A stretch of DNA of 61,344 nt, counting the filler, from Basidiobolus ranarum (lineage: Eukaryota): NCBI GenBank assembly GCA_040143965.1. It is 10 parts of 10 records of this genome, joined end to end, with 100 filler letters (N's around TTAATTAATTAA, not from the genome) between each part and the next. Parts side by side here need not be neighbours in the genome. Positions count along the whole stretch, not along the records: positions 24,615 to 30,662 come from JASJQH010008303.1; 9 more parts are not named here. One strand, given 5' to 3'. How positions within the stretch are numbered: position 1 is the stretch's first letter; every line of letters begins with the position of its first letter. Positions 1 to 58,611 of this stretch are shown here, one piece after another. The notes beneath the pieces were generated by a model. It did not search any database. It was not told the origin of the DNA and worked only from the letters and a program-made list of their open reading frames with translations. Both the position numbers and the translations under genes were made by a program.

Positions 1-10
1 TGTTAAAGAA

Positions 11-3630: not shown

Positions 3631-3643
3631 AGTTGTATGGGAA

Positions 3644-3998: not shown

Positions 3999-4000
3999 AA

Positions 4001-4083
4001 TATGAGATGATCTGGCAAAGTTTTGAGAAAATAGTGAAAAATAGTAAAAATGATATCATTGATATTTCTATCCAGTAAAGCAA
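4001..4083 (-). repeat. Inverted fragment of LTR family A
   Basis: Reverse complement (..ttttcactattttctcaaaac..agatcatctca) matches the LTR interior at ~3745-3825. Confidence 0.75.
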
Positions 4084-4084
4084 C

Positions 4085-4240
4085 AGACTGGTTCCATTGG
4101 AACAAGTCAGAATGTGCCACTCAATCCAGCCTGCTATCACACCTTCAGGTGTAATCTGTCAATTGCCATGGCTAGGTCCTATGACACTTGATTGGACACA
4201 ATAAGGAACAATATAGCATTATCTGTCCACTATTGGACAC
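4085..4240 (+). repeat. Subterminal segment of the CACTA-like element (inverted homolog of 6159-6310)
   Basis: agactggttccattggaacaagtcag...aaggaacaatatagcattatc is the reverse complement of the start of contig 2, with scattered substitutions. Confidence 0.8.
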
Positions 4241-5133
4241 AATAATTTTTTGGAGACATTGTGCCAGCACATACCAAGTTACACAATTTGGTATTCCAAA
4301 TTAAGATTTTTGATAACTGACAAAGCAAGTTCAAATGTATAACCAAGACATTCTTATTTTTTTATGCCAAACATATGCCTCTTGCTCACACAATATCCTG
4401 ATCTTCAATTGGGCCCATTGGCTCCTATATCATGAAACATCAGTAATTTTGGTGCAGCAGTGACAGATCACAGCACTCAATGATGGATCAATTTGCAGTA
4501 TGAGAGTAATGAGCAGGATTGTTTGATGCATCATTTTTAGATCAGCAAATTATTCATTCAAGCATGTAAGCTTCTAATTGGATGGGAATGTGAGCAGATA
4601 GGCCATAACAAGGAAATAGAGCTGTACAAGCTTTTTATTGACAGACATTATTTATTTAATAGTAGTAAAATAGCTTCTATTGATAGGCTATCATTGATTT
4701 TTTTGATATATCACAATTTCATGCTATTAGTATTTGTAAAGAGTTAATGATCATGATCAAACTAAAGCAGTTTATGCAATATTTAACCCCAATCCATATT
4801 GATTTTGCAGGATGCCCTGAACAGTAAAGCTAGGATAATATAAATATTATCAAGAGCATTCACCAGTTGCCCAGGTTTGAAGTAGTACATGCTGATTTGC
4901 TTCTATTATTTTTGTTGTCTCCTGGATATTTCCAAGGAAGGAAATTTGCTTGAAACTCAGCACCAGGTTGGTTGGTTTGATCCTGCTGAAGTTCCTCTAC
5001 CTTTTGCCAGCATTAGTTGTGGCTTGAGGTTAATGTGTTGTGGTATGTGTTGGCTCAACTGGTATAGTTTGTGGTTTGTTTGTATCTACAGTCTCTTCTT
5101 CAGATGTGGAGTGTTCACTTAATTGGACAACTA

Positions 5134-5484
5134 TGTTGAAATTAGGTAAATAGCAACTCATTATTTAGTAGTTGTTTTATTCATATTCTGATTATTTATC
5201 ACACAATTCTGTCATTGAAAAACATGTTTTTATTGCTCTAATTGATAGAAATTTCAACTAGATCACTTTTACCAATTTTCAATATTTTCTCAAAACAACT
5301 CCAAATCACCTCGAATTTTGACCCACACTTAATAGGCATGTTTGTTAGGATCTAAGCATATCCAATAGTCATATTTCATAGTAACTACAAATAGGACATA
5401 TTCAATTTGATAAATTTCAAGTGTCTAATTCACAAATCCAAATCTTGTTCAAAACACTTCCAAGTCTTCTAAACACTTTTATCA
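5134..5484 (+). repeat. LTR, copia family A (isolated copy)
   Basis: TGTTGAAATTAGG...AAACACTTTTATCA, aligning along its length with 3644-3998 and 58612-58950. No matching TSD seen. Confidence 0.9.
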
Positions 5485-6058: not shown

Positions 6059-6158
6059 NNNNNNNNNNNNNNNNNNNNNNNNNNNNNNNNNNNNNNNNNN
6101 NNTTAATTAATTAANNNNNNNNNNNNNNNNNNNNNNNNNNNNNNNNNNNNNNNNNNNN
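6059..6158. other. Artificial contig linker (also at 12214, 18366, 24515, 30663, 36806, 42946, 49083, 55215; each 100 nt)
   Basis: 44 N + TTAATTAATTAA (stops in all six frames) + 44 N. Contig lengths decrease monotonically from 6058 to 6030. Confidence 0.99.
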
Positions 6159-9100
6159 CCAATTGTGGTGGGATAGTGCCATATTGTTCCTTATAGTCTC
6201 CAATCAAGTTTTATAGGACCCAGCCATGGTAATTGACAGATCATGCCAGATGGTGTACTAGCAGGCTAGATTGAGCGGCACAATCTGACCTGGTCCAATG
6301 GAACAAGTCTAATAGATTACCCCATGGCTAAAACAATACTACTGCATATCTCAATCAACCCCACCAAGAAGTCTGTCTTACAGGTTTGCTTGAAATACCA
6401 TCAGATTGTCACACTAACAAAGTTAGTTTGAATTATAGAGATACTTACTCTGTGTCCTGGGATTGGGTTTTGTTCCTGATATTGTGCTCAAACAATATAA
6501 AAACCAATGAGTACATTGAAAAGAGCCCTTTGTTGGAAGGTTAGTATACTCCGGAGTTTCCCTAACCCATTGCATGACATCCATCACTGATTTTGCTTAT
6601 ACAGTGTTAATCAGATTAGTATATGGTAATACTGATGATTCAAAGGGAGTATCATTTGACTGCAGGTTCGCTCCATTGGGTACTCCCAGAATATAAAGCA
6701 AAAAAAGTTTTTGATATCTAGTTACAAATTCTTTGCACAGTTACTGCATCTGCATGAGATCTGCCAATGTGAACTGAGGCCATAAGAATAGACCAACAAT
6801 ATCAACAAACAACTCCCAATGTTGCCAATACTTACCAGACAGAATATTCATGGGAGTCCAGGTAAAATATGATGGTATCTTGATGTTTTCAATCATATTT
6901 CCAACAGAATCAAACTTTAATCCTATCTCCAATGGCTTATTCCAATTGAATTCTTGACTATACAGCTGAGTAAGCAGTATTGGAATGATATTTAATACTA
7001 AGAGCATGGTGCTCAATAGCAAGCTCTGGCTGCAGGTGATCCCCTTTGCAATACAATCCAAGGCTTATGGCTTAACCATAGTTTGATGTCAGACTGACTA
7101 TTTGGTGTATTGATATCAGTAAGCAAGTTGAAATCTGACCAGGCTCTTGATGGTAAAATCATGGAGTTTTGTTTTGCATTTGAACAGTAGTAAAGCATAT
7201 GCCTGATAGAATAAACTCCAATGATTTGTCAAAGTCTACAGCAGGACAATATATTGTTCTTACCAAAACCTCCAAGTTTACTGATGGTGGGAGTGTCTCC
7301 ATTGCATACAATGATATTAGCTTGAGAAAATATTCACTATCTGAATCCCATTAGATAACCATTCCAATTCTGCAATCAAAAGCTGCAAGAAGCTATCTAT
7401 AAGCACTGGTGATTTAGCTCCAGATATGATGGATAGTATCAAGATATTTTGACTTCTATACCCTTCAGAAGGAGGAAGATCCAAGTTAATTAAAATTATA
7501 GGCCAGCAAGCCTTTCCATCAGTATAATTATTTAGTGAGAAACCATCCAGAGCCAATCCAAATGCATGAGCATACATGTTTGCAAAGAAACCTTGCCTTT
7601 TCAGATTCTGGTATTGATATCCATCAAGTATATTAGTAATACCATCAGCATTGTGGTGAGTACTTTGGCATTGGATCAATGATTGATATTTGTGTGATTT
7701 CATCAAAACTTTAAGATGGGGAATTCATGGTATGTAAGCCAAATATGAGCAATATCTACTTGGTTCAGTGATTGCCAATTGTGTGCAAACAGTACATGAC
7801 TTCAGGTTTTTTGTATTACTAGTGAAAGCCAAACAATTATTTGGACATGAAGGTAGTTTAATTACTGAAGGATTTTATGTCATACAATTGACAAGTGTTA
7901 TCCACTTGTACCAGGTCTGTGGCAAGCAACAGTTGCCAATAAACTGTGATAAAAGTGTAAGAAAACCAATAAACACCTGGTTGCTAAGATTCAATTGAAC
8001 TCTCAACTCCTCAACATTCAGAGCTGCTTCCTTTACTGTAAGTGTTTTGAGTAGACTAATGCTTGCCAATAACAAAGAGTCTGTAACAAAACCGCCCCTT
8101 TCTTCTTCAACTTCTGATATACTACCATTGATGCTGGAATAATCAAAGTTAACATCTATCAGCCTGTCCTCAAAGTTGTCTGTACATACTGGTTCAACCA
8201 AAGTTGCACTCCTACATACATCATTCTGATCATATAAATGTGGTAACTCCTTAGTATCTTGACTTTTGTCCATGCTATCAACACTTTGAGACAAAGCACA
8301 GCCATTGGGCTCAGTGGGCAAAACTAAAGTTGATTTTGGGCACTTATTACTGTTGATATTCACCAGACTTTGTGCAGCTAGTGGCTTTGTACAGTGACCA
8401 TGCTTGTGATTATTTTTTATATGAAGCCTGCAGCTTTTGTAGCACCAGAATTGGTGACAACAATAGCAGGGCTTCTTTAAACATTTGTGTTGTGGAATGA
8501 GAAGGATATGATAGAGACAGAACACCTCCTATGTACCCTAACAGAGATTTGTGGATTGTTATTGGAGGAAAACCATCACAATTTTAATCCATTTGGGATT
8601 GACCATCAGAAAATCCCTAATCTCTTTAATATACTCTCCTGAACATTTTTATTGAGTTCTTCCTACCCTAGGTTTAGCTCATATGCAACACAATTTTGTA
8701 GCAATATCTCCATCAAAGCCAACCATAGTATTAATATTTCTGAATCAACATTCTTCCAGCTATCTTGTAGATATCCTGCAACATTGTTCCACTCCGTATT
8801 AAGTTATTCCCAGATATCTATATGGTTAACACCAGAATGAATGTCAAGTTGAATCTTCTTCTTCCAAAGCCACTTTCAGCATACTTGAAATGCATTTTTT
8901 CCTTCATACTTTTGAAAATACCTCTCAAGCACTTTGACTATTTTTATATGGCCTTGTAGTGTTACACTACTGAGGGTGCTTTGCAGTGTTTTTATGCCTT
9001 TTTGCTTGCCTTTAACTTTGGCCTAATTTTAACACTTGGAAAAGTACCACTTGAGGTTGGAGAACCATAAGTTTCATTTGCTTGTGTTTTGGCTTGTTGA

Positions 9101-10409: not shown

Positions 10410-12213
10410 TGTTAAGTCAGGATGCACCATTACTGATCAAAATAGGTATTATTTAGCTTTGTGAGAAAGGGATCCAAATTTATACAACTTTACATATATT
10501 CCCAGAGGTTTATGTGTAAATATAAATTATTCCAATCAAGAAACTATTCAAATTATGGCATAAGAGATTTGGCCATATTTGATGTGTTTGTTGGTGCAAA
10601 ATGATCAAAAATTGCCTAATTTCTGGAATTCAATTAACCCCCCCCAACCAAAATGGAAATTTGTGAGGGTTGTATATATGGAAAACAAACCAGGCAATCA
10701 TTCAAGAGCTCTGGTTTAGTCAAATCTGTCAAAAAATTGGGTCTAATTCTTTCAGATTTGTGAGGACCTATGCAAAATTTATATCTAGGCAGAAAAAGAT
10801 ATTTAATCATATTTATTGATGCTTATACAAGCTACACATAGGTCAACTTTATGGAAAGAACAGAAGAAGCTCTTTCTGTCAATAGAGATTTAAAGCACTT
10901 GTGAAGACTGAAACTGGAACTAAAATCAAGATAATACACACTGATAATCATGGAGAATATACTTGAATGCTATTTAAGCACTTTTGCAAAGTTCACGGAA
11001 TTAAGCAAGAAACTACTGCCCCCTATTCACCTCAACAAAATGGAGTTGCTAAAAGAGCTACCAAGACTATAATAGAAATAGCAAAATCAAAGATAAATGC
11101 ACAAAATATATCTCATAACTTTTTGGCAGAAACAGTTGCTACAGCTGTACATCTGAAGAATTGGAGTTATACTAGAAGACCATCTAACTCTACACCATAT
11201 CATGCTTGGTTTGGAGATAAACCTGATGTAAAACATTTAAGGATGTTTGGATGCATTGCTTACGTCAAAACTATAACAAAAAATTGGTCAAAACTTGATC
11301 CAAAGAGTAAGAAGTGCTTATATCTGCGTTATTGTACTCAAACTAAGGCCTACAGACTCTATAACACCAAAGTTTTACAAGTTAATCAAGTCCAGAGATG
11401 TCTTGTTTAATGAAAATGAAACTTTTTCACCCAAAATGACCTCAGATGATGACAAAAAGCAATATTCTCCTGATCCAATCATATAAATTGTTTGAAACCA
11501 AAACAATTAAGAAAATAGCATTCTTATGGACCCATCTACCAAAATTGTGCCTACTGAAGTGCCCAATACAGTGCCAGAAGTTGTAGTACCTTTATCCCAT
11601 ATCAGGAGATCAAATTGGATCATTAATAGCCCAGATTACTACATCAATGAGTCCCAAATTGGGCATATGCTTGCACAGCTCAAATACATGGACCCCAGAC
11701 TGTGAAAGAGGCCTTGAATGGCCCGCACAAGATATTATGGAGATCTGCAACATCTGATGAATACCAGGCTTTGGTTGATAATCATACTTGGATTTCAACC
11801 AACCTAGCTGATGATAGAAAATCAATTGGTTGCCAATGGGTGTTTGAAGTTAAATTCAACACTGATGGCAATATAGAAAAGTACAAGGCTAGACTAGTAG
11901 CCAAAGGATATCCCCAAATGACAGTGATAGATTATACAGAAACTTTTGCTCCTGTAGCAAAGTTTAATTCAATTGGATTGATTTTAGCAATTTCAGCTAA
12001 ATATCAGTTTATTATATATCAAATGGATGTTAAAACTGCTTTTTTGAATGGAGAGCTTGCTGAGGAGATCTTTTTGGACCAGCCAGATGGATTTGTGTTC
12101 CAGAAAACCCTAAAAAAGTTTGCAGACTCTGTAAAAAACTCTATGGCTTAAAACAATCTCCAAGAGCTTGGAATAGCAAGATAGATGCTTTTGTGGAAAC
12201 ACTCAAGTTCCAA
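10410..12213 (+). mobile_element. Decayed Ty1/copia pol fragment (integrase + RT), truncated by contig end
   Basis: TAPYSPQQNGVAK, LRMFGCIAY, KLDPKSKKC, IGCQWVFEVK, YKARLVAKGY, QMDVKTAFLNGEL. Frameshifts present. Confidence 0.95.
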
Positions 12214-12545
12214 NNNNNNNNNNNNNNNNNNNNNNNNNNNNNNNNNNNNNNNNNNNNTTAATTAATTAANNNNNNNNNNNNNNNNNNNNNNNNNNNNNNN
12301 NNNNNNNNNNNNNACATCCTCTGAGCTTGATTACATTGGTCATCAGGTTAAGTATGGATATGATTCAGTATTGTCACAATATCTCAAAAGATTGATGTCT
12401 TGATTGTCACTTTGCTTAGATTAGAATTTAAGCTAAATAAAGTCTACACCATCTGGTGCTTTTCATCCCCCCTAACCCTAACCCTATTACAATGGTTAAA
12501 CTTAGCTTTGACTCAATCAAGAATATTGGTATTTAGCTTGATAAT

Positions 12546-18365: not shown

Positions 18366-20744
18366 NNNNNNNNNNNNNNNNNNNNNNNNNNNNNNNNNNN
18401 NNNNNNNNNTTAATTAATTAANNNNNNNNNNNNNNNNNNNNNNNNNNNNNNNNNNNNNNNNNNNNTAGCTTTGGGAGAAAAGGATCAGAACTTATACAAA
18501 CTTACATTCAGCCTCGGATGAATTTTTGCTAACTGGAAAGCGAGATTCAGTTCCTACCAAATGATCGTGGTTGTGGGAACATTATACTTGATGGATCGCT
18601 TACTCTCTGACTTAGACTCGTTATGAACCTGATCCGGACTCCAGTGTATGGTATACGGATACACTGTATCAGAAAATCAATGCCAGAATATGAGATCGGA
18701 AGGTGAGTCCTAAAGGAATCGTAATCAAAGCTGTCGGTGAGCGAATCAGAGCGATGATCTCTCCCCCAATGATGTCATATTCAGCGGAAAATCCAGAGAA
18801 TTGAAAATCACTTTTTGGTACATTTTATCTTGGCTAATAGGTATGTTGGTCAGATCATGGAAAAGATAAAGGACCCTTCGTTGACATGTGGATAATAGGG
18901 TTAGGCAAGGGAACCATGGAACTTCGCAGCACTGAGTCCACAATTATTAATATTCCTTTCAGTCATCCCAAAACGGACCTAATGTGATAAAAGTAGAGGA
19001 TAGTGGCTAAATAGGGAGATAAACTTCCGCATCCGGTTAATCCGTCCTTACCCAATGACCTCCACTGTGTCAGGCTTCAATTGGAATGGGGGCCTTCATG
19101 GTTAAGACTAAAATAGAGAGGTTGCGCGGCATTTGCTTGGTCCACTTCTCTTTGAACTTTAAATCATGGTTAATGTAATGTATGCATTTGCTTGATGAGA
19201 ATACATTGGTTGAACACATCCAATTGGGAAGAATCAGTGATACGAAGTGCTTGTAAATAGAAACATTACCAGAGTAAATTTGGAAGCGACTTGAATTCCA
19301 TGTTGATCATGAGGGTTTCGTTTGTATGTATTCTATATTAACTGTAACATTATCTACGTCGCTGTACTCCAAAATATTCTCCCCCGAATCACACCCTGTC
19401 TCTTTCGACTAAACTTGGAATATCGCAGACCATGCAGTACCTATTTATCAAATGTTTGTCAACTGATCTCCAGATATCCCTTTATGTCAAACTCCCGCCC
19501 ATAGCCATGGTGCAGCTAAATGATAGATATGGTGTTGTTCATCATGCATTCGCAGGTAGTGTAACAGTGTGCTATGCTCAGGAAATTGGGCCGTTTCTTA
19601 GCACCATTCGAATTCACTAGTCAAGGCTAAGTTCAATGGAATCCTAAATGGCCACCCCGTGATCATCAGCCAAATAGAGGATTCTTTTTCCACGCTAAAA
19701 AAATCCAAACTTATTCCTGGATTGTTCCCTTGTTTACATGTCCCAAATCAAACATCTCCTTGGCTGGCCCATATCAAGTTGCGCGGAAAAAGGGGACTCA
19801 TGAAAGTTCATATTGAGTTAAGCGGGGTCAATTTGATCTGGTTGCTGGTTACTATCCGGCCAATGATGACGCTTGTTGATTGATTGCACCATGAGTGTCC
19901 CTAGTATGAATTGCATTTATTTGATAGGCTGCTAGTAGCAGAGTCTCGAGTGGGTTCCCAATACGTTTCAGCGTATAGCTGTTAGGGTACATCTGTCTAT
20001 GGAAAACACCTTTTAATGTACTGTTGCAGGGTATTTTCATAATGTGCACTTGAATTAGGGCTCGATCTATAAGCATGAAATATCGGGATCCTCTCCGGTT
20101 GCTGATCCTGTGAGATATTGCTAAGTGCGAGTTGAAGGATTCCTCACCGTCATCTTAAGTCTATCAAGTAGACACTTTCCGATATATTCCAATCATTGGC
20201 AATTATCACTGCCCCTATTTTGCCCCCTTCATTTAGTAAAGCTATACCGACTTGGTTACCTTGGCGACAGGCCCTTGGAACTTGCTAATTATGAGTGAGA
20301 GTTCACTCTATTAGCTACAGCCAAGAGTGTCTCTGATAGGCTGGACTTCAGCGTAATGATCATGTATATGCAACTTGCTTAAATCATGCTGTGATTTGGA
20401 ATTGTTAATCAAGTCTGGTACACTTCTCTTTCGACATTTGAGTCCAGACGTAGCTTTGGAGTTTGAACGGTTTATTTACATATAATCTTCAAATGGTTCA
20501 ATTAATGATCTATTAAATAATCAACATAACCAATGAAGCGAGTGATTCAAAATGAAAACATAAACGGAATAATAGTGGATTAGGCTGTAGGTTTGGCTAG
20601 CAAATCAAGTATCTTGCATAGGTTTTAGGCAGTGCAATTAATCACTATTCTCGCCACTATATCTTCACCAGTGCCAAGAAAAAAATCATTTAGAAATACA
20701 GTTATTATACATCAGGTTCTAACACAAATAGGGGCTTTGACGAG

Positions 20745-24500: not shown

Positions 24501-25753
24501 TCATATTGAACACGNNNNNNNNNNNNNNNNNNNNNNNNNNNNNNNNNNNNNNNNNNNNTTAATTAATTAANNNNNNNNNNNNNNNNNNNNNNNNNNNNNN
24601 NNNNNNNNNNNNNNTCCTGTCTGTGGAAACGGCGAGCTTGAAATATTCAAAGAAGTACAGAACCCGAGACCTTTTAAAAGAGAAAAGAATCCCACTGTAA
24701 CATGCCATGGCCTTTTAAGGTAAAAGCTTTTTATATGTAAGCCAAAAAAAACGAAGCTGATTGTTTTCAATTTAGGTGCAAAAACCAAAAATGTATGGAT
24801 GCCATGACTGAGAGTGCTAGGACTTCTGGAGGTACTCTTCACCATCGTCTTTGGAATCGTAATATGGCAGCTACTTTGAATTTCCGACATATTCTTTTTG
24901 GGCTGCGGGAAAACGGGGTCTCATTAGCTAGTAGTAGTCGACCTACTAAAAAACCAACCCATCCTTTGTAGTTACCGCTACACTAATCCAAGATACAGTG
25001 TAAGTCTTTGAACATTAATGCGCTTCGTCTACAAAAAAAATTACACTGCCTATTTTTTTTACATTCACTCGTCTCAAAGTTTTTTTTGCAATTGTCCCAT
25101 ATATTTTATGAAGCGTCTAATTTTTTTTTAAATTGTCTCATTTTAGGCTATAAACCTCTATAAGAAACGCACGAATTAGATGTGATATAGCTGGTAGTAA
25201 ATATTACCAGACCAACATTAGGAACCTATTACTGCGGATAAACGAAAGCAGTTAAATGATAATAATCAGAGTTACTACTGTTTGTGGACGTTCATAGAGA
25301 GTAGAGTCTGAGATAGTATCTCTCTTGTTACTCCATGTATTTGCGTATCATACATTGCAGTTTACAAACAGTAGTTAAATTATCAGTGCCCTATACTCTA
25401 TACTACATATATACTATCTGGATTCATCTACCTACTTACTATTTATCCTCAGAAGTCAACCATATCTAGCTAGTTGACCAATTAGTAGTATATTCGGTAC
25501 TACCTGTGCCTTTACCTCCTCTACCCTCTATATTCATGGTTCCGGTGCTAATCGTGTAGTCTCTTAACGTTTGCTCAAAACATATGATTTCTATTGAATC
25601 AACGTGGCGTTTCTATCAGAAATATAGAGATACTCAATGCAGTATATCACCTCCCACTTGTGCTTTGAGCTTGCCAATAAAACAATTTATTAAAAGATTT
25701 ATCACATTAAAACTATTTCGGCTCTCTTATAATAAATTATCGGGATATGTAAA

Positions 25754-26413
25754 CTAGACTAATAATGTAACAGTAAGTACAGCAGCTATGGTCATTATCC
25801 CGGAGCTGAATACATTCTTACTTGGTGAAGCATTGGTACTTTTGGCTGGCAGAGTAAAGTTCTTTGTATTAGACACATCACTATGATTAGTCTTGTCAGC
25901 GTCATGCCAGATGAATGATACTCCCTCTCCTAAATAGAAGTTCACATATGTAGTGATGTAGGGACCTCCTTTTCCATTAATAATATAATTCCAGTCACTA
26001 GTGTGTACACTACCATCCTCGTTGATGCTCTCCACCACTGCCACATGTCCATATGAATCGCAGCCTTGATAACCAGGCTGAATAGCAATAATAGAGGGAA
26101 CACGTGGTTTAGTAGAGACTACCCAGCCCGTAGTGTTCATGGCATGAGCAGGCCAGGTTTTGGCATTACCCCACCATTGAGTATGATGACAAGTAAGCTG
26201 ATAGTACCGAGCATCCGCCCAATCGGTACATTGGCCATTGTGGAAGCGAAACTGGAGAGGGCAGTGGTCTATGAGATTACTTCCGATGTTTGATTCTGTG
26301 GTGTTATAGGATAGTGGAGAGGCAATGGATGCTGTAGAAGCTTGGACGGCCACATTCAAGGAATTAACAGTAGCCAAAACGGCACACGAGAGGATGGAGA
26401 GCACTTTAACCAT
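25754..26413 (-). CDS. Secreted, probably GPI-anchored CHAP-domain (Cys/His-dependent amidohydrolase/peptidase) protein, 219 aa
   Basis: N-terminal signal peptide. CHAP motifs GQCTDWA (Cys codon 26228-26230), WGNAKTW, YGHVAVVE (His codon 26045-26047) and SDWNY. S/T/N-rich linker, then terminal hydrophobic IMTIAAVLTVTLLV. TATA at ~26475-26483 and AATAAA at ~25686-25691 on the minus strand. Confidence 0.9.
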   Translation of the reverse strand: MVKVLSILSCAVLATVNSLNVAVQASTASIASPLSYNTTESNIGSNLIDHCPLQFRFHNGQCTDWADARYYQLTCHHTQWWGNAKTWPAHAMNTTGWVVSTKPRVPSIIAIQPGYQGCDSYGHVAVVESINEDGSVHTSDWNYIINGKGGPYITTYVNFYLGEGVSFIWHDADKTNHSDVSNTKNFTLPAKSTNASPSKNVFSSGIMTIAAVLTVTLLV

Positions 26414-27089
26414 TATTTTCTATTTTGATCAGTGGACAAAATTATTAATACAGTAATAGTAGTCCTACGGCTCACTATTTATATGAAGTATTTAATGTTC
26501 AAAGGATTAACAACGACCATCATTGAATAGCCAGTTATAACCAATCATTCTTGGACTGATGCTTTTGGATTTCCTTACCAGAAACGAGTAAGCAATTTTG
26601 ACCCAGAATAGAAGCAAACCATTTATAGCGGTTATTGCTCTTACGAGGTACTAATTTGGCCGACTGTTCCCTATTATAGATTAGTTTCGCTCGATTTGGT
26701 CATTCGATTCTAGCAGTCTAATGATTATGATTTTCGTCGATATTGGTCACTTTACAGTAACTCATTCTAGACTAAGCCAAGAACTAAAATTTCACACTAT
26801 CTACCACTTAATGTGACCACCAAGTAATTTCGTAGGCCATTTCTATTTTTGATTTCGCCCATACTTTGGACGTGGGGGGGGGTTCAAAATCCCCCGTGTT
26901 CCAACTGAATTTCTTGAAATCAATAATGACCAAGTGTAGCTTGAATTTCAAAAAACCGTTTTTACACTCTTGAAAATCGCAATTGCGCATATTAGGTAAT
27001 ATAAAGTGATTCACCTATTCAGTTCATTAGGCCTTTGCATTATTGATATATCTATGGTAAAATCTAACAATGAGCCTGTTCATTCCATG

Positions 27090-27430
27090 CTACTTCCTAG
27101 ATAGAAATTGTGGTTCTGTAAGATCCATTTTCTACGTCAATAATGTAATTTCAGTCAGTTGGTGTATACTTTACAAATCCAATTGAGGCTCTCTATTACC
27201 ACGGCATGTCCGTATAAATCACAGTCGGGGTACGCAGATTGAATAACAACGATAGAGAAGGCGACGCTAAGTAGAGACTACCCAGATGTCAGTGTTCCTG
27301 GCACTTTCAGGCCGAGTTCTAAGGCTACCTAATAGGATCACACCTCTATTGACAGTAAATGTAGGTAAGGATATGTAACTATCGGGCCAATCAGTGCATT
27401 GGCCATTGCAGAAGAGAAACTGGAAAGGAG
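27090..27430 (-). pseudogene. Decayed tandem paralog of the CHAP gene
   Basis: Manual translation across frames gives PFQFLFCNGQCTDWPD..WVVST*, SIVVIQSAYPDCDLYGHAVVIESLN, D*NYIIDVENGSYRTT and NFYLG. These are colinear with the intact gene's PLQFRFHNGQCTDWAD, SIIAIQPGYQGCDSYGHVAVVESIN, DWNYIINGKGGPYITT and NFYLG. Confidence 0.88.
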
Positions 27431-28807
27431 AGGCGTAGAGGACAGTGAGGGCTAGGGTATAAGCCAGCTACTTCGATGTTTTTGGAAAGCAAAGAGATGA
27501 TGGGTCCTGCCGAAGTTGTGAGAGGATTCAGCGAAAAAAACTAAGGAATCTACGGTAACCAAATTGGCACATGATAAGAAGGCCATATATGTATTAGTAC
27601 AAAATGCAGTTGGATAATTATTCCACTCCGCCAACACCGCTTCAATGGCAATGTAATATTCAGTAAGGTGGCCTTTGATCTCTGGTCTCTCTCCTTATTT
27701 TGGAACCAGCTCATGTTTCAACATACATAGAGATTCGTTGATTGGATCATGATTTGAGTGATAGTTTCAATCCGATTTTAGGGAGATCTACAGTTGGGCC
27801 AGCTGTTGGAAACCCTAGGTCACAGATATCTATCGAAGCTAGCTCAAAAAATTGGCATAGCTCTGAGATCTTCTTCCAAACTCGGTATCGAAGCTCTTTC
27901 TGATCAAGAATCTAGACTCTGCACTGTCAAGCTCTAAATAAAAACAGTCTCTAAAAGTGATTACAAACTATATAGATTTTCTAGTGATAATGGCTACCGA
28001 TGGGGAAATAAATAGATACTGGTGAATACTAGAAACAACCTTGGAAGCATCCACGGAGCCCCTTACTACAGAGTTATCTCTGCCAGTACTTTGTATATAT
28101 ATCTAAGACCCTGTGCACTACTTTGTGAGTGAATGGTAACTCAACGAATCGTACTGTTTACCAACTATTGTTAGGAGATTTGGTAAGCGATGATTGTATC
28201 TACTCATCATAGAATGATTGGGACAAACTCCGGTTTGCGCAATTTTATTTGGGATTGATGTATTCAGAAGAATATAACAGTTCGTTCCTTTCTTCAAACA
28301 GGGATATTGGAGACTTGTCATACTCATCTGGTGACCGATGTTTAGTAAGTATCCTGCTTCTTTACATTACCGTCTTCAGAGAAGCAATCATCAGTAAACA
28401 AAGAGAGCAGCGAGCTCTGTGACTACTTCAGGAATTCATATTCGAATATCGCAAGAATTAGGGAGAAATGCGAGAATTTCATGACTGGAGGAGTTTGAGA
28501 GAAGAGAAATTGAGCTTGCGAGATGTTTGCTCATAGTTAGAAAAGAAGGTATACACTTCTCAAGCACACATGGCCACAACGTATGGGATTAGCTTAAGAA
28601 TATCTGTGAGAGTGTATGAGCAGCGGGAAGGGAGAGGAAGAGCAACAATATTTGTAATCATTATACATTCATAAAACCCAGCGGAAATGTTTAGGATCTC
28701 AATAAATTCCTTCCCTTGATATTGCACTCCAAGTATCCAAGATTTCTGGCGAGTCGTAGCGTGTCGTAGATGTTGTGCTCAATGTTGGCATTGCTACATG
28801 AACATAA

Positions 28808-29250
28808 ATGAAAGATTCTTTTACTGGACTAGTATATTCGTACGGACTGGCACAGGCGCCCCGCTTCAATGGAGTAACATGTGGCAACTATACATTAACA
28901 CCGCCTCAGCTATTCAGCTCACTTTCTGCTCCATGTTCCTTCAACATACACGTTGCCTTAATGGGTTACATCTACTCTACGCTGGAGTCAATACTAGGTT
29001 AAGTCTTAATCACATTGGGCTTAGTGTGTATGGCTAGCAATATGCTATGGAACGAAACAGCCCAGCTATGTTGCCAACACCAAGCGACGTGTGGTAATAC
29101 ACGATATCTTGCTGCAAAGACTTAGGCTTCTACAATATGTGCAACCAGTGAATAATGTTGCTAAGAAGTTGAATCTGAACTGCATGTACGGTAGTAGCGA
29201 GTGCTGAGCATATCAACTCTGGAGATACTTTAAATGTTACATTGATATAT
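28808..29250 (+). pseudogene. Possible decayed LysM-like small protein gene
   Basis: Fragments CCQHQATCGNTRYLAAKT*AST, KKLNLNC and INSGDTLNVT resemble the fungal LysM pattern (HxVxxGDTCYxIA...NxxLNC..LxxGxxLxV). Interrupted by stops and frameshifts. Confidence 0.3.
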
Positions 29251-29855
29251 AATACTACTTGCTACAATAAATACTCATTTCATCAAGATCCATGTTATGT
29301 GGATTACTATCTGGCGCAATTCTCCTTTTAAGTACTAATTTGCTTTTTTCAATATGAGTAGAAGTTCCCTCCCTATAATCACCACATAAATCTGTCCACC
29401 AGATTGGATAAGCTTCAACTTATATGATAGTGTGTAAATGAGGAAATGAGATGTAGTGGCGCTTAGCTCTTTGATGCTCTTTAACATTGAAAAGTCGAGA
29501 AAGAATGCATAGGATAATATGAATACTTATCCAAAGTGAAAACAGCTATAGTATGAGTTACATATACAGTTTTTTTGAGAACAATATTTTTTCCTCAACA
29601 TTCTTTCATGTTTTATCCTCACTTAACATCCAGTTTATCTATTTGGCATGTATTGATAATGCATTAGTGCAAAGAATATGGCTCAAAAGAGTAGCGGCAT
29701 AGATGGATTTCATATTATTCAGATGAGTGCAAGATGTAGGGAGATGAAAAGCACCAGGTGGTGTGGACTTTATTTAGCTTATATATACTAATCTAAACAA
29801 AGTGACATTTAAGACAACAATCTTCTAAGATATTGTGATAGTACAAGATATTTTC

Positions 29856-30070
29856 TGTTGGGAATTCTCAGGGAGAATGGAAGTGAAATGGATTGTGATA
29901 AGAAAGTATGGTTTTCACTTGCTGGTTTATTAGCTAGAACTTTGGTATTTATACTTTGGTCATAAATACCATAAACTCATGATGGGGCCATAGTGAAAAA
30001 TATGTCAGAATACTGTGTACCAAGTTTGGGGGCTTTAGGGAAACTTTCAAATTTCTTCTAAATTTCAACA
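29856..30070 (-). repeat. Short LTR, family C
   Basis: On the minus strand it reads TGTTGAAATTTAG...TATAAATA...CACTTCCATTCTCCCTGAGAATTCCCAACA, with TG..CA termini. It lies downstream of, and co-oriented with, the minus-strand RNase H fragment. Confidence 0.65.
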
Positions 30071-30092
30071 TCTTGGACATCAATAAACAGAA

Positions 30093-30440
30093 TGTTGAAA
30101 TTAGCATTGCCTAAGCACCTATATAGTCATATATAACTTAGTACTTAGTTATCTTATAGTTCACTAAGATATTATCAATTATTCTCAATTGGAATTTACT
30201 TAGAATATTTTTACCAACTTAGAAGTTCTCAGATATACAGATTTTTCAAACTTGTGCTAGAAGCCCCAAACTCAGCACACATGTTCCTGGGACCTTCCTT
30301 ATCACATTCTACATGTTAATTTGTTTACATCTTGACAAAACAATAAATGTAAACTTACTACTCAATAAATCAATAAGTGAGAACCACCAATTCCTCTAAT
30401 TCTCCAAACCACTTCCAACGGGCTCCCAAATACTTTAACA
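30093..30440 (+). repeat. Full-length LTR, family B
   Basis: TGTTGAAATTAGC...AAATACTTTAACA. Homologous to 10146-10270 and, inverted, to 50957-51270. Confidence 0.9.
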
Positions 30441-30662
30441 GAAACTAATCATATTAAAGGTCTAAATTTCTCAAATTTCTGTCTAGCTAATGGTTTGGTT
30501 AATATATCAGCAATCATATCTTCTGTAGAACAATAAGTTAAGTCATTAAACTTATTCTCTATAGTCTCTCTAAAGAAGTATTGCTTAATATCTATATGTT
30601 TGTTCCTATTATGAAACATGGGATTTTTAGCTAATTTGATACAACTTTGATTATCTTGAAAT
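30441..30662 (-). mobile_element. Copia RNase H C-terminal fragment
   Basis: FQDNQSCIKLAKNPMFHNRNKHIDIKQYFFRE..YCSTEDMIADILTKPL. Confidence 0.92.
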
Positions 30663-31611
30663 NNNNNNNNNNNNNNNNNNNNNNNNNNNNNNNNNNNNNN
30701 NNNNNNTTAATTAATTAANNNNNNNNNNNNNNNNNNNNNNNNNNNNNNNNNNNNNNNNNNNNAAAAAGTAAATACTTATGCGATTCAGTTTTATACAATG
30801 CTTTGGCATCCATTATACCTGAGGTAACAGTTCCGGTCGATTCAGCCTCAATTGCTGAACGAGTCCAAGTAATACTTTCACCTCTCTGAACGCCAAAAAG
30901 CCTGGTATATAAGGCAAGTCGACCTCAACTTCCTGAAAATCCTCGTATATTACCTGATATCCATATATATGTATGTGTTATTATGCTTGACAAGGTAATA
31001 CCAATTGAGCCTCTAGTTATTTCACCTTTAGACTAGGATATTCTAATATCACTAAACCTGCAAGTGCTAGGCGATCATTGTCTGTTGGGAAACTCAAATC
31101 TACTCCACCTACTAATCGAAGTCCTTCGACTTGCCCTTGGAAATTTAGTTGAATATCTGAAAGGTCATCAGTTAGAACTAATTTCTGACGCAACTCGATT
31201 TGCTCTCTACAGAAATTAAAGAGTCAACACTTTTCCATTTGTGATACACCTTCTTTGGATATTTATCCAACAATAAATATATGTAACACGTACTTTTTCC
31301 ACAAATCTTTTAGTGTTTCATCTGGTATAGGTAAAGAATAGGTGATTTTGGTAGCCGACATTGCCTTTGATATTGCATAACAGTTAGTCTTGCGTATAGC
31401 GTCTTTTAGTAGTAAACTGACTTGAATATAATCAGATGATTTGATCATTATTGGTCATCAGATAGAAAATTAAAGGGGTATGAATTTTTGTACACTGGGA
31501 TTTTTAATATTACTTTTATCATTACCTCACACATAGTGGTTAACAAATAAACAAGTTAAAGGAGGCAAAAATCAGGGAATTGATTGTTAACATGAAGATG
31601 ACTCCTATTAT

Positions 31612-36805: not shown

Positions 36806-36905
36806 NNNNNNNNNNNNNNNNNNNNNNNNNNNNNNNNNNNNNNNNNNNNTTAATTAATTAANNNNNNNNNNNNNNNNNNNNNNNNNNNNNNNNNNNNNNN
36901 NNNNN

Positions 36906-42945: not shown

Positions 42946-43045
42946 NNNNNNNNNNNNNNNNNNNNNNNNNNNNNNNNNNNNNNNNNNNNTTAATTAATTA
43001 ANNNNNNNNNNNNNNNNNNNNNNNNNNNNNNNNNNNNNNNNNNNN

Positions 43046-46000
43046 TTCAAGGCTCTGGAGACGTCCAATGAGTATTGCGTAGTGGTTTCTATCCTTTTGA
43101 TTGTTTTGATCATAGCTCTTACTCTCAATCAAATCGTAAAGTCTTTTTTGTTGAATGATGAGACATTGGATCTTTTCATCGACAACTTGAACCCTACGAC
43201 CAACAGTTTGAATATCTCTGGAATGGCGTTTCAGAATTTCCGAAAGCTCTTTGCGGTCCATCAATTCCCGCTGGTAATTTGAGACAGAGGCAACTTCTTG
43301 GTAAAGGCTTTCAAACCTCTGTCTTAGGTTGTTCAAGTACCCAACGATCTCGGAACCTTCATCATATCGATTCCTAGGGCTCTCAGCGGTTTGGAGTAGG
43401 CGTTTTTGCAGTTCAGTAATAGCATTTAAGCTATTGGTCATCGAATTGAACTTTTGGTTCAAAATGTTGATTTCCTCTATTATTTCCTTTGGTACGGTAG
43501 TAACAACTTCACGGTTCAACAAAACTGACTGCTTTTCTACTACTTCATTTACAGCACGGCCCAACAATGCTAGCTTTCCCAGTAGGGTTTGGTTAAGGTC
43601 GGTTTCTTTTTGCTGGTTGAGTTTCCAAATGTTGTTCAGAATTGCTTTCTGCTGCCCAACAAGGTTGCGAATCTGATTACCAAAGTTCTGGACTGTTGTT
43701 TTCACTTCTTTGAGATCGCCTAGTTCGCCAGCTATCACCTTCAATACATCTTCATTTCTAAGGATTTGCTTTTGCTGATTTACCAGTTGACGAATTACGC
43801 CACCGAATTCATTTAAATTCTGATTTATAGCATCGATTGCATTCCTATACTCAGAGGCTTGTTCGTCATTCGATGACTTGATAAGTTCTGTCTGTCGTTC
43901 AAATAATTGTCGGATTCGAGTGTCCAAACCACTGAGATTCATGTTGATCTCGTTTACTTTGCCTGCTACAATTGTAGGCAGAGAGTTGCCAACATTGGGA
44001 CGATTAAGCTTTCTTTGTTGTTCGATGAGATATTTGACCTCGTCCTGGAGTTCCTTGAGGTTAGCAACTATAGGCTGAAGATTGACGCCCTTATTAGCAG
44101 CATTCTTCATATAATCGGAAGTTTGAATCAGTTTGAATTGGTTGCTTAAAATACTATTTACTAAGCCACCGATCTGTGCAAGTCTATTATCGATTTGTTG
44201 AATTTCTCTGGAATGTTGTTCCAAAATTTGGACTACTTTCCTATTCGTCGTGATCCGACTTTGGCCATCAGCAATTCGGGCTATTATCTTGGTCAATTCA
44301 TTGAAGCGTCGGTTTAGCTTGGAAAGCTCTTCGTTAACAATGGAATTTTCATTGTTGGCATCCTTTGCTCCGCGTTGAATAAACAATGCTTGTTCCCTAG
44401 AGACTTCTATAACCGTTTGTCGAAGTTCTCCAAGCTGAGAGCTGATTCCATCGATTTGAGATGCAACCTCTCTAGGAATAGCAGCGTAGACTTCTTTGTT
44501 GACGAGTACTTTCTGCTGCTCAAACAAATGTCCGACCTTATCATCCAATCTATGAAGCTCTTCCAAAACACTTTGTATATCTCTATGGCTTTGTTGCGAA
44601 CTACCAGTAGTATTCTTAAGCAGTATTTGTTGTCGGTTAATCAAGGCGCCGAGCTCTCTTCTAAGGTCGTTCACTCCGAGACCTAGCGACCTGATCTGCA
44701 TATTCTGCTTCTTGATAGCATCCAAAACACGATCGTTGTTAGCAACTTTATCTTGGCGAGTTAAAATTTCACCAATAAATTCGCCCAGTTTAACAATTTG
44801 TTCATTTAGGAGTTTAACATCACGACGATTGACTTCATACCCAGCCTGGACCTTCGATTCCGTGATACCGATACGATTCTCGTTTTGGATAATGACCTGT
44901 TGCTGATTACCTAGCATTGTCACTTGCTCGTGTAACTCAAACATTTGTTTACTCAGTACCTGTATCTCATCTACCACCTGTTGAGGAATTTGGCTCATTA
45001 CTTGAGGTTTGGTTAGCTCATTTTGACGATCGATTATACTATTGACGTTATTATTCAGCTCTGTAAACCTCCGAATTAAGACTTCGATTCCAGGATTGTT
45101 TGCTTCCTGATTAGAGCCACTAGCACGTAGGATCTCTGTCTGAATTCTAATCAACTTGGTCATCTGAGAACCAAGTTTACCTAGTCGGTTATTCACTTTT
45201 CCAATGTCCTCTGTTTGGTGCTGTAGTATCTTTATAACATCCTCACGGCGTAACAGGTTCGATTGTTCCGAAAGAATCTGATTCACTGAGTTCTTCAAGG
45301 GACGGAACTCATTAACTATTTCAGAAATATATTTATCGATATTGAAAAGATGTTGCTCGTCGTGTTTCTCAAGCTTCAATAAGTTATTTTGTCCCTGAGC
45401 TAGGCTGGCGATTTGATTGTCTAAAGCTGAAAACCGGGCATTCAATTGTTCGATTAGAGCTAAAGCTTCTCTAGAGACATACGGACTAGCTCTAGCATTG
45501 CCAAGTTTTCTCTGGTAGTCAATGACTTGACTAACAACACTGCGTAAGGCTTGTAATTCCTCATATATCGGCCTCATATTTTGTCTTGCGCTCTCTTCTG
45601 AGCCTTGGTTAGAGTCATCAATCTTCTGAATGATGGCTGATTGCTGCTCTACAATGTTGGAGAATCTCGAGTTGAGTTCATTTAGTTTGGCGTCCAAATT
45701 ATCGATCTGATTTGCTTGGACTTGAAGTAATTTGATCACTTGGTTGTTGTTGAGAACCCTGGATTGAACATTGAATGTTTCCTTTACAAAGTTACCGAGT
45801 CCATTAAGCTGTTCTGAGAGGTTACTGATCTCGCTGACTAAACTTTCCGATAACTTCCTATCCGAATCCTTTGAGACAACGGTCATTTGTTTAGCGGCAA
45901 ACTGATCGACAGAGTGGACGAGTTCTCCGAAGCGAGAGTCAAGATTCCTTAATTCATCATGAATTTCTTTCGGGACACGCCCATTCAATTTGGCTTTGAA

Positions 46001-49000
46001 CAATCTTTCTTGTTGTACAACTATCTGATTTATAAAGCTTTGAAGACCACTAAGCTTCTCAATGATAGCGTAGTCGTTGGATTTCCTTTCACGGTCATCG
46101 TCGTAGCTGTTCTTTTGAACACGTCTCAATAGAATGGCTTGTATGCGTACAATGTCGTCAACCTTCTTGGTCAAACTCATTAGCTGATTGTCAACTTGAT
46201 CCGTTTTCCTGAGATTTTGCCTTAACAGCTCAGTGTGGGTCTGAAGGATTCGTGTTTGCTCAGCATATAAATCTCTAATATATCTTCCGAGTTGTCCAAT
46301 CGAATTGGTTAGCTGCTCCAAGCTTCCTTTCACTTCTTCAGTTAAGCCACTTTCATCTTTACGATTTAAAATGCTTTGTTGCTGATACAAAAGCTGATCT
46401 ACAACATCACTCAATTTAGTGATTTTAGTGTTTATAACAGAGACATCAAACGGAATTCTTTGATTGCTTGAGCCACCCCATTGAGCCTTCAAAATCGTGG
46501 CCTGTTGATTCACCAATCTGAACACAATGTCTCGCAATTCACCAAGCTCATTGACTGCCTTATCAAGTGTATCCGTATTTTGGTCCTCTTTGCCCATTAA
46601 AGCCCTTTGCCCATTCACCAACTGCTGCACTCGTTCTCCCAGAGTGGATACCTTAAAATTAATGTTTTTAAAGCTCTGAAATTGTTGATTACTGAGAGCA
46701 CCGATACGCTTGAGAATTTCAAGCTGTACATTCGAAGTCCGATTGATTCCTTTGTCAAGGTCGATGAGCTCAGAAGTAAGTTTCTCAATTTGAGCGTAGA
46801 TTTCATCCGAATATTTCTTTTCACTGTTCGAATTTAGTTGGATTATTTTCTCTTGTCCCAAATATATCTGGCCAACAAGACTGCCTAGTTGACTTAGTTC
46901 CCTTCGTAGGCTTTCTATCTGTTTATCTACATCCTGGGATGAATAGTTACCACGAATATTTCGAGCCAGCATATTCTGCTGTTCTAAGATTTGACGGGCA
47001 TTTCTACTTATATCCTTCAATACCGTAATGAGGCGAGCATCATTAGCTCTATTTCCGTTAGAACCTCTACGATTCAGCAATTCTTGTTGTTTCAAAATCT
47101 GGTCGATTCTATTGCTTAGCTGGCCAACTTCCAGAGAAAGGTGTTGAATTCCTGTGTTTTGCTGATTAAAAAATCTTACTACTTCGTCCCGAGTAATGAG
47201 TACAGCCTGCGATTGAATCAATTTGTTTACAGTGATAAAGAGCTGTTCAAACAGGGCATTATAGTGTTTGATCTCTCCTTGATTGTTTCCTTTTCCGGCA
47301 TATTGGAGAACTTGATCCTGCTTAGATAAAAGTTCTCGAATAAACAGAGCTAACTGATTTAGGCCACTTTCTATAGCTGTGATTTCTTCTCTCAATTCAG
47401 CAGATGTATCATGGCCAGATTTAGCAAGAATCAATTTACGCTGTTCGTTTATCAATTGGTTGACGGCTCTCTCCAACTCATATAGTCTTCCGTTTATAGG
47501 CGATTCCTTGTTGTAAAGTTTGCTGTTGAACAACCTTTGTTGTTGATTAATCAACTTCGAGACATCCGACCCTAAGGTTGATAATTTTTGATTCACAAGT
47601 TTGAAGTTGCTATCTTGCGACTTCCAGAGTGAATTAACCGCCCGAAGTAACCCATCCTGGTATCTAGTTAATTCTTCAACAGCACCATTGAGTTTATCAA
47701 CTTTGACTTTAATCTGTCGCGCCTCCATTTCAGTATTCTTACTATGAGCGTTAACATTACTGAGTAAAGCTCTTTCTTCCTCGATCACTTGTTGAGTTGC
47801 CTGATTCAAAAGATAGAGCTTCTGAGTCATGTTTCCGATATCATTCAAGCGTTTTCTTGATATATTGGATTTCACATAAGCAAAGAGCTGATCTTGTCCG
47901 CTAGTCAGTCGTTGTACTGCATTATAAAGCCCAGCCAGTTGGTCAATATGTGCTTTCATGAAATTTCCATTCTGACCCTGGTTATTACGGTACCGTTGAC
48001 TTTTTTCTAACTCAACCAAGTCGTTGATTGAGCTTTGAATCTGGCCCATTTGCATACCAAGTTTTTTGAGGTCTTTCGACTGAGATACGATTAAAGAAAA
48101 ATACTCCGGAATATGCAAAAGTACGTTTTGTTGCCTACTGATGAGTGTCGCAATCTCCCTCAACTGGCCAAGCTTTGAATCGATCAAATCAAGCTTCCTA
48201 TCCACAACTCCATTGTTTTCGGAATCTCCTTTACCGAGATAGCTTAGGACTTCGTTCTGTTGATAGACCAATCTATCAATGACGATGCTAAGTTTTCCTA
48301 GTCGCTCATTCATATTTTGAATGCTTCTATCCAACCCATAATTCCTTTGACCATCAGACTTTATCGATATCAATCTTTCTTGATCTTGAACTAGCTGGGC
48401 CACCACAGCGTAGAGTTGTTCTAGCTGTTTTTCAATTTGACTATTATCACGATCATCTCGACCTTCGTGGTTAGCCAAGATACTTCTTTGTTGTCGGATT
48501 AAGACATTCATTGTTGATTTGAGGTTTGCGAGTTGTCCCCCGAGATTTGCAATGTCACCAGAATAATCCTTCAATTTCAAATTGAAATCACCACCCAAAA
48601 TGCGACCTTGTTGCCTAGTAAGAAGTACAAGTACGTTATTTAGCTTACTCAACTTCCCGTTGATATCTTGAATATCCCGTGCTTCCCCTCGACCGTTATT
48701 CAAGATCTGTTCTTGTTCATCGCTAATCTTTTCTATGACCTTGTAGATGCGGGTGCTTTGGTCAGCTAAATATTCAATCACTCTCTCGAGTCCGGCAGGT
48801 ATCTTATCTCCCGATCCCCGCACCAAGACTCTTTGCTCTCTGATTACCTGCGTAACCGAATTACGAAGTTGATTGAGAATGCCCTCAAGGTTGCGGTATT
48901 CATCTGAGTTGCCAAGTCTTTCATAGATGCTTCGCTGTTGCTTAATAAGACGATTCATTCTCTGACCTAATGCCTCTAGTTTAGCATCTAGTATTGTGAT

Positions 49001-58600: not shown

Positions 58601-58611
58601 TTGAGTGGGAC

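Follow-up and report, generated by a model that had tools for sequence, protein, structure and literature searches.

This locus raises the question of how a fungus came to carry a gene for a bacterial-type cell-wall hydrolase, and where its product acts. The gene lies on the minus strand at 25754..26413 of a 61,344-nt stretch of joined contigs from Basidiobolus ranarum (assembly GCA_040143965.1), here called the window. Its product, a CHAP-domain protein, is denoted P0001. The original prediction took it for a horizontally acquired enzyme, secreted and probably held on the fungal surface by a glycosylphosphatidylinositol (GPI) anchor, and for the best candidate for an undescribed system in the window. 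The explanation that we find reasonably probable is that this is a working Basidiobolus gene for a secreted CHAP cysteine amidase or peptidase, derived from one old Ktedonobacteria-related transfer that was followed by expansion of the family and, in this copy, by the gain of a lineage-specific GPI-type tail. It is not a new kind of system, and its function is a presumed one.

The gene is intact and intronless, with 219 codons and a stop in an uninterrupted frame from the ATG. Both catalytic motifs of the original prediction are present, the Cys of GQCT as Cys62 (codon 26228..26230, minus strand; aca on the plus strand) and the His of YGHVAVVE as His123 (26045..26047, minus strand; atg on the plus strand). 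The Pfam CHAP profile PF05257, named earlier as a check, matches residues 58-142 with 56.4 bits against a gathering cut-off of 26 (E 4.3e-15), and Pfam finds no binding module beside CHAP. In NCBIfam, the models for staphylococcal amidases and PcsB match only in part and score far under their cut-offs. The best sequence match in PDB is the CHAP domain 2k3a of Staphylococcus saprophyticus (E 9.4e-11), with the motifs GQCT, GHVA.VE and S-x-x-N-Y aligned. In 2k3a, the positions of D140 and N142 are taken by the E and N of SEMNY. Residues 140-142 (D-W-N, aligned to E-M-N; 25988..25996, minus strand) would thus provide the third polar position of the triad, and a catalytic role of D140 or N142 seems likely from this alignment.

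An AlphaFold2 model was built from an 89-row alignment. Its predicted local distance difference test (pLDDT) values are 90-98 over residues 51-170 and low over 1-49 and 175-219. In the model, Cys62 opens helix 62-74 and His123 lies in strand 123-130. The catalytic domain, as outlined by Pfam, PDB sequence matches, AlphaFold2 and Foldseek, comprises residues 50-172 (25898..26266, minus strand). Foldseek found 19 PDB matches at E <=0.001, and those listed are all CHAP peptidoglycan hydrolases: 5t1q of Staphylococcus aureus (E 5.8e-7), the phage phi812 hub CHAP, LysK and PcsB among the top ones, and also LysGH15 and PlyGRCS. Glutathionylspermidine (Gsp) amidase appears only at E 3.3e-2. Conservation was considered in 45 fungal rows, three of the 47 relatives being omitted as their domain segment was too short. 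Each of the residues Cys62, His123 and Asn142 is conserved in 44 of the 45 rows, which argues for enzyme activity being retained; position 140 is D in 7 rows and N in 36. By its likeness to these hydrolases, P0001 would cut bacterial peptidoglycan.

P0001 has the same fold, Cys-His core with a polar third residue and motif order as the bacterial and phage CHAP hydrolases (PF05257, MEROPS C51; 2k3a, SAOUHSC_02979 5t1q, LysK CHAPK 4csh, PcsB 4cgk). However, it is only 20-32% identical to them, lacks a module for cell-wall binding such as SH3b or LysM, and is encoded by a fungal gene with a eukaryotic predicted signal peptide, N-glycosylation sequons and a GPI-type end. A search of PHROGs gave a single weak match (E 6e-4) to a family of unknown function. 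Membership among the phage endolysins was considered and rejected, as there is no lysin-family match in PHROGs and no modular lysin architecture. Three of the five cysteines of P0001 are extra ones: C51, C75 and C118 (codons 26261-26263, 26189-26191 and 26060-26062) occur in only 13-14 of the 45 fungal rows. They may form a disulfide stabilising the secreted enzyme.

P0001 is one member of a large fungal family, annotated in the published Basidiobolus genomes as unnamed 'Peptidase C51 domain' models. As this family is already present in those genomes and in Entomophthorales, the description of the locus as an undescribed system does not hold. A word-indexed protein search gave 62 proteins. The best 32 matches after P0001 itself are all 'Peptidase C51 domain-containing' or hypothetical proteins of B. 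meristosporus or B. ranarum, 49-73% identical and mostly 160-320 aa long, several of them on scaffolds of 120-270 kb. Then come 26 matches with lengths of 165-374 aa (320-374 in most), which are unnamed, called 'surface antigen' or assigned to Ktedonobacteraceae, with similarity confined to the CHAP domain. An exhaustive search of representatives gave 953 proteins at E <=0.001, with 14 at <=1e-30. Cluster look-ups added five Basidiobolus members, a protein of Dictyobacter vulcani, proteins from Chloroflexota and Ktedonobacteraceae metagenome-assembled genomes (MAGs) and, unexpectedly, proteins of Entomophthora muscae and Massospora cicadina. A profile made from the distant fungal rows gave 13 matches, of which seven belong to E. 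muscae, two to Massospora and one each to Neoconidiobolus thromboides and Streptococcus; the other two are unnamed.

The family has at least 37 named Basidiobolus proteins from two genomes, roughly 18-19 named copies per sequenced Basidiobolus genome, and 10 named proteins in Entomophthorales. The Basidiobolus C51 paralogs (P0002-P0033 and others) and the Entomophthorales members share family and origin with P0001. Among the matches listed in these searches (the best 150 of 953 in the one of representatives), many of them unnamed, the named eukaryotic ones come only from Basidiobolus, Entomophthora, Massospora and Neoconidiobolus, a patchy distribution. Three further proteins, P0187, P0199 and P0201, have signal peptides and low-complexity Asn/Gln/Pro linkers and fall inside the fungal CHAP clade; the domain of P0187 is nearly identical to that of an E. 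muscae protein. Further fungal or fungus-like carriers outside the present sample probably exist.

The domain of P0001 is 88% identical to that of P0003 from B. ranarum, and P0001 shares the predicted signal peptide beginning with MVK and the three extra cysteines with its close paralogs P0002-P0005. A decayed tandem paralog lies at 27083-27428 on the same strand (minus), about 670 nt upstream of the intact gene (tblastn identity 45% and 37% in two frames, E 3e-12). The stretches FCNGQCTDW and CDLYGH survive in this copy, but its frame is broken by in-frame stops and a frameshift. The pseudogene belongs to the Cys-rich subfamily, because the Cys of QGC is kept. In B. meristosporus, several paralogs have a scaffold length in common: 176536 (P0004, P0017, P0018), 122520 (P0009, P0012, P0013), 160813 (P0006, P0010) and 145671 (P0021, P0030). 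This suggests that the family is arranged in clusters or tandem arrays in that species too.

The nearest relatives outside fungi are membrane-anchored CHAP proteins of Ktedonobacteria (Dictyobacter vulcani WP_151755742, here P0068, and proteins of Ktedonobacteraceae MAGs), in agreement with the Chloroflexi/Ktedonobacteria lead of the original prediction. The best of these bacterial domains are 50-58% identical to that of P0001, and the motifs GQCTxWA, PSIIVLQPG and GHVAVVE are common to both. One genome for each of 185,579 prokaryote species was scanned, giving 585 pattern matches and 312 confirmed relatives. The titles of the 78 best loci are all from Chloroflexota, and every title with a finer name is from Ktedonobacteria, namely from the genera Ktedonobacter, Dictyobacter, Thermogemmatispora, Thermosporothrix, Tengunoibacter, Ktedonospora and Ktedonosporobacter. 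In the Ktedonobacteria proteins, of 310-375 aa, CHAP is preceded by a long N-terminal stretch and a single membrane helix, and the chain ends right after it. The fungal members instead have a predicted signal peptide and often an Asn/Ser-rich linker, and P0001 has a predicted anchor at its back. A bacterial sub-clade of 46 tree rows (P0081, P0122, P0142, P0075 and others) has an N-terminal CHAP domain without a signal peptide, a Ser/Thr/Pro linker and a C-terminal membrane helix. It is known only from metagenome or Logan assemblies, and none of the 78 species-genome loci falls in it.

In a FastTree phylogeny of 271 domain rows, a Basidiobolus clade of 36 rows (support 95) is sister to 229 bacterial rows (95). 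Quick and careful IQ-TREE runs were made under a site-heterogeneous model on 62 rows, rooted on Macrococcus and Streptococcus-type CHAPs. All 28 fungal or fungal-like rows (17 from Basidiobolus, the window gene, seven from Entomophthorales and three unnamed eukaryote-like ones) form one clade in both, with support 98/92 in the careful tree. In the careful tree, Basidiobolus (90/94) and Entomophthorales (94/80) are distinct groups inside this clade, and a Dictyobacter/Ktedonobacteria group is sister to the fungal clade (88/85). The window gene groups there with P0002, P0004 and P0005 of B. meristosporus and P0003 of B. ranarum (100/97).

Thus the bacterial ancestry of the family is well supported. 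The direction of transfer, from bacterium to fungus, is indicated by the bacterial outgroups and the narrow eukaryotic distribution. What fits best is a single old transfer into an ancestor of Basidiobolus and Entomophthorales, treated as one lineage in the abstract of PMC3734969, and subsequent expansion; two transfers, or a transfer from fungus to fungus, are possible. The horizontal acquisition that had been proposed for this gene is upheld as Ktedonobacteria-related ancestry and has to be corrected in its timing: it was not a single recent event, the transfer being old and family-wide.

The N-terminus of P0001 (residues 1-25; 26339..26413, minus strand) is a predicted signal peptide, in which MVK is followed by a hydrophobic core and VQA then S. 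It matches the usual pattern in a simple-rule check, with a mean Kyte-Doolittle hydropathy of 2.62 over residues 4-14, and is common to the paralogs P0002-P0004 and P0007. A low-confidence Ser/Thr/Asn linker follows (residues 26-49; 26267..26338, minus strand; pLDDT about 50) with the sequon N37. Behind the catalytic domain there is a polar stalk (residues 173-205; 25799..25897, minus strand; pLDDT 40-66) with the sequons N176, N185 and N194 and the candidate omega sites A190, N194 and S203. The hydrophobic end, residues 206-219, IMTIAAVLTVTLLV (25757..25798, minus strand), runs to the stop codon with no residue after it, and the mean hydropathy of the last 11 residues is 2.79. With N93, this makes five N-X-S/T sequons, so sequence and hydropathy bear out the sequons and the hydrophobic ends described at first. 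The stalk, described as Ser/Thr-rich, does exist, but it is short, and Ser and Thr make up only 29% of residues 171-219. The promoter and polyadenylation motifs are also as described: TATAAA at 26478..26483 (minus strand), 70 nt upstream of the ATG, with another at -214, and AATAAA at 25686..25691 (minus strand), 63 nt past the stop codon.

The close paralogs all stop at ...GVSFIWHE, and P0001 runs 47 residues further. The 47 named fungal relatives have no hydrophobic C-terminus, and most of them end at the last CHAP strand. The tail of P0001, with its three sequons and 14-residue hydrophobic end, satisfies the fungal omega-site consensus [NSGDAC]-[GASVIETKDLF]-[GASV]-X(4,19)-hydrophobic(10), as quoted in PMC12387857, from A190, N194 and S203. 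A test combining this consensus with a hydrophobic end is passed by none of the 47 relatives, and P0001 is thus one of 48. In the window, 13 of the 363 stop-to-stop open reading frames (ORFs) of at least 49 aa match the consensus, and only the CHAP gene is also hydrophobic-ended. Read-through past a stop was simulated 200,000 times at the local base composition. The frame stayed open for 30-99 codons in 24,615 runs (12%); 675 of those match the consensus, and 100 are also hydrophobic-ended.

Hence the C-terminus fits the fungal GPI consensus, as had been claimed, and the tail is a plausible GPI-attachment signal; tethering at the cell surface is what we infer from it. A single gain of the tail in the lineage of the window gene would be more economical on the tree than several losses. 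The tail would then be the novel element of the locus, a lineage-specific GPI-type end on a family member that is otherwise of an existing kind.

The following sequence of events and functions is proposed. The family would have entered the ancestor of Basidiobolus and Entomophthorales once, from a bacterium related to Ktedonobacteria (Chloroflexota), and a eukaryotic signal peptide would have taken the place of the bacterial N-terminal cytoplasmic and transmembrane part. Tandem duplication would have expanded the family in Basidiobolus. The window copy would be the counterpart of P0002 and P0003, having gained its 47-residue C-terminal extension in its own lineage. The signal peptide is predicted to direct P0001 into the endoplasmic reticulum, where it would be N-glycosylated and a GPI anchor, joined to N194 or S203, would take the place of its hydrophobic end. 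Thereafter it would be displayed at the plasma membrane or wall, and shedding following cleavage of the anchor may also occur. There, Cys62, His123 and Asp140/Asn142 would cut an amide bond of bacterial peptidoglycan or of its soluble fragments. What the analysis shows directly are the sequence features, the fold and the family with its relatives; secretion, GPI attachment, substrate and biological role are assigned to P0001 by prediction.

There are parallels to this in other eukaryotes. The tick gene dae2 is reported to be an acquired bacterial amidase used against skin microbes (bioRxiv 10.1101/2020.04.10.036376), and the oomycete Saprolegnia parasitica is described in PMC3681718 as having a secreted, duplicated CHAP family of suspected bacterial origin. 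In both cases, as in the fungal family, a eukaryote living among bacteria took up a hydrolase of the bacterial peptidoglycan type, which received a secretion signal and was duplicated. The differences are the recipient, here Entomophthoromycotina fungi, the donor lineage, the GPI-type end of one copy and the fact that the fungal family is known from sequence. On the side of the anchor, P0001 resembles the yapsins, fungal GPI-anchored hydrolases, which, according to PMC12387857, likewise have a signal peptide, a catalytic domain, a short polar stalk, an omega-site consensus and a hydrophobic end. However, the catalytic domain of P0001 is of the bacterial CHAP type, not an aspartyl protease or glycosidase, and its GPI anchor is a predicted one.

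Eukaryotic uptake of bacterial cell-wall hydrolases is also known from lysozyme transfers. In Basidiobolus, bacterial gene uptake accounts for 2-5% of genes, mostly intronless and of host-like composition, according to the main text of PMC7466969. That main text does not mention CHAP or peptidoglycan, and its Table S5 of transfer candidates may include these genes. Text searches found no mention of the fungal CHAP family in PMC8778642 or in the E. muscae genome paper PMC11105155. A literature search found no paper combining 'CHAP domain' with Entomophthor*, and none relevant for Basidiobolus together with CHAP; C51 was absent from the listed 12 of 51 papers naming three or more of the terms searched.

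The window consists of ten pieces of 6058, 6055, 6052, 6049, 6048, 6043, 6040, 6037, 6032 and 6030 nt, in descending order of length. They are joined by nine spacers N44-TTAATTAATTAA-N44 at 6059-6158, 12214-12313, 18366-18465, 24515-24614, 30663-30762, 36806-36905, 42946-43045, 49083-49182 and 55215-55314. The positions of the N-runs delimit the contig bearing the CHAP gene as 24615..30662, 6048 nt. The pieces are separate contigs, and therefore arguments from neighbouring genes across the spacers are invalid. Genes or fragments for GAPDH, an intron-split M14 carboxypeptidase, DAHP synthase, a GPN ATPase, Cef1 and copia lie on other pieces of the same assembly. Thus, contrary to what had been assumed, the CHAP gene does not share a contig with these fungal genes, and a first argument against contamination, from its physical linkage to those for GAPDH, the M14 peptidase, DAHP synthase and Cef1, was dropped.

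The CHAP gene is the sole recognisable gene on its contig. No family above threshold was found in a Pfam scan of the 35 small ORFs of this contig. A sub-threshold match to Iron_permease (low-affinity iron permease; 21 bits against a cut-off of 25) at 28720-29037, plus strand, may be an exon or a relic. ORFs of at least 100 aa cover only 21% of the contig, which is unlike bacterial DNA. The GC content of the contig is 0.375, that of the CHAP ORF 0.444, and its GC content at third codon positions (GC3) 0.418; these values resemble the other pieces and their coding ORFs, so the earlier call for a composition check is answered in favour of a fungal origin. The right end of the contig (29739-30662) contains dispersed repeats with 69-93% blastn identity to five other pieces (1, 2, 3, 9 and 10), including a 119-nt pair at 93%. 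The putative long terminal repeats reported before correspond to these shared repeats, for which no more than a dispersed nature is claimed here. The repeat-sharing pieces include the one with the GAPDH and M14 genes, and copia also occurs on repeat-sharing pieces. For the Cef1 fragment, which lies on another piece, the best matches are the two Cdc5 proteins of B. meristosporus, at 74% and 68% identity; the next best reaches 41%.

Other features of the window were noted in passing. Pieces 1 and 10 carry diverged copies (75-85%) of one repeat element (1-5400 and 55500-58900). There is a Tnp2-type transposase fragment and copia-type integrase and reverse transcriptase fragments, with places given as 7317-7724 and 10967-12151. 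The piece at 43046-49082 (minus strand) is as a whole one frame open at both ends, of about 2000 aa, repetitive, rich in Gln, Leu and Asn and coiled-coil-looking; Pfam gave no match for this frame.

Several points weigh against the proposed explanation. The single origin of the fungal family depends on the tree method: in the FastTree phylogeny of 271 rows, Entomophthorales fall outside the pair of Basidiobolus and Ktedonobacteria, on long branches near the outgroup. In the approximately unbiased (AU) test, keeping the bacterial rows in one group lowers the log-likelihood by 1.39 units, and such a tree is not rejected (p-AU 0.488); therefore the fungal clade is either sister to the Ktedonobacterial radiation or nested in it. 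Of the nesting in a bacterial clade that was to be looked for, the trees thus give the fungal clade with its Dictyobacter-group sister, but do not decide on nesting itself. The patterns of the species-genome search were derived from the subfamily of P0001, so its bacterial members were favoured, and the representative search was named from its best 150 of 953 matches. On the functional side, no enzyme assay on any fungal or Ktedonobacterial family member was found in the literature. The GPI assignment is based on one regular expression and hydropathy, and the tail comes from a single sequence on a single 6-kb contig. Its GC3, 0.347, is lower than the 0.435 of the core and similar to the total GC content of the flanks (0.36-0.40). 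Finally, the stalk is short, and an enzyme anchored beneath the fungal wall may be unable to reach whole bacteria; therefore soluble muropeptides or touching bacteria are more plausible substrates than distant cells.

Given the low GC3 and the single occurrence, the tail could be young or accidental. The ancestral stop may have been lost or shifted, or the assembly may be in error, and the protein would then effectively be a soluble family member or a decaying copy. We regard this as rather unlikely, although it is the most serious of the alternatives. It agrees with the presence of the tail in one of 48 family members next to paralogs ending in ...GVSFIWHE, with the adjoining dead paralog, which shows that birth and death of copies is ongoing, and with the 12% of simulated read-throughs that stay open for 30-99 codons. 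However, consensus and hydrophobic end coincide in just 100 of the 200,000 simulations and in none of the 362 other window ORFs of at least 49 aa, the hydrophobic run stops exactly at the stop codon, and the remaining gene is intact with all catalytic residues. It is less probable still that the hydrophobic end is a permanent C-terminal membrane helix, echoing the bacterial CHAP-linker-transmembrane relatives. Such a build does exist in the bacterial sub-clade, and phmmer aligned its member P0142 to P0001 residues 52-215, but the run in P0001 has only 14 residues and no charged residues following it. Fourteen residues are few for a membrane-spanning helix, whereas GPI signals typically have a run of such length. 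The bacterial architecture was also considered as the source of the tail and rejected, because the window gene nests deep within the Basidiobolus clade, whose other members have no tail.

The target might be something other than bacteria: the wall or the secreted peptides of the fungus itself, molecules of a host, or glutathionylspermidine-like compounds. Some CHAP domains are amidases that act on substrates other than peptidoglycan, with Gsp amidase and trypanothione synthetase among the Foldseek matches; Entomophthorales, which live inside insects, retain the family; and an enzyme anchored under the wall reaches whole bacteria poorly. Yet all listed structural matches at E <1e-3 are peptidoglycan hydrolases, Gsp amidase being far weaker, and the most closely related CHAP proteins are extracellular ones, anchored in the membrane of bacteria with peptidoglycan walls. 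We consider a different target unlikely. Bacterial contamination of the fungal assembly could be suspected for an intronless gene on a contig of only 6048 nt without a recognisable eukaryotic housekeeping gene. It is, however, extremely improbable, because of the low coding density, the repeats common with pieces bearing GAPDH, the intron-split M14 peptidase and copia, the matching composition, the decayed CHAP copy and the identity of Cef1 taken together; the same results put the organism in the Basidiobolus lineage, some way from B. meristosporus. Moreover, the domain is far closer to Basidiobolus proteins (88%) than to the best bacterial ones (50-58%), a predicted signal peptide of eukaryotic type replaces the bacterial N-terminal cytoplasmic and transmembrane part, and relatives reside on fungal scaffolds of 120-270 kb. 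The explanation by one old transfer, expansion and a lineage-specific tail in a working gene thus stays the preferred one.

A large CHAP family shared by Basidiobolus and the insect-killing Entomophthorales is not discussed in the main texts that could be searched. It points to an old, maintained and much-duplicated tool for coping with bacteria in fungi of guts, dung and insect bodies, and to an unusual donor lineage, Ktedonobacteria. As these fungi live in places rich in bacteria, the many soluble paralogs would be in keeping with secretion for antibacterial or nutritional purposes. The window copy is a natural experiment in relocalisation, with one and the same enzyme being soluble in the sister species and probably held by a lipid anchor in this one. 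Tentatively, and with doubt on our part, one may go further and suppose that, in a gut fungus with an arsenal of peptidoglycan hydrolases derived from bacteria, one copy became an enzyme GPI-anchored at the surface, with an anchor signal built from new 3' sequence in its own lineage, serving as a contact weapon against bacteria touching the hypha or spore, or as a device for trimming or sensing peptidoglycan fragments. If true, no CHAP enzyme before it would have had a eukaryotic lipid anchor, and the case would give a dated instance of de novo emergence of a GPI signal.

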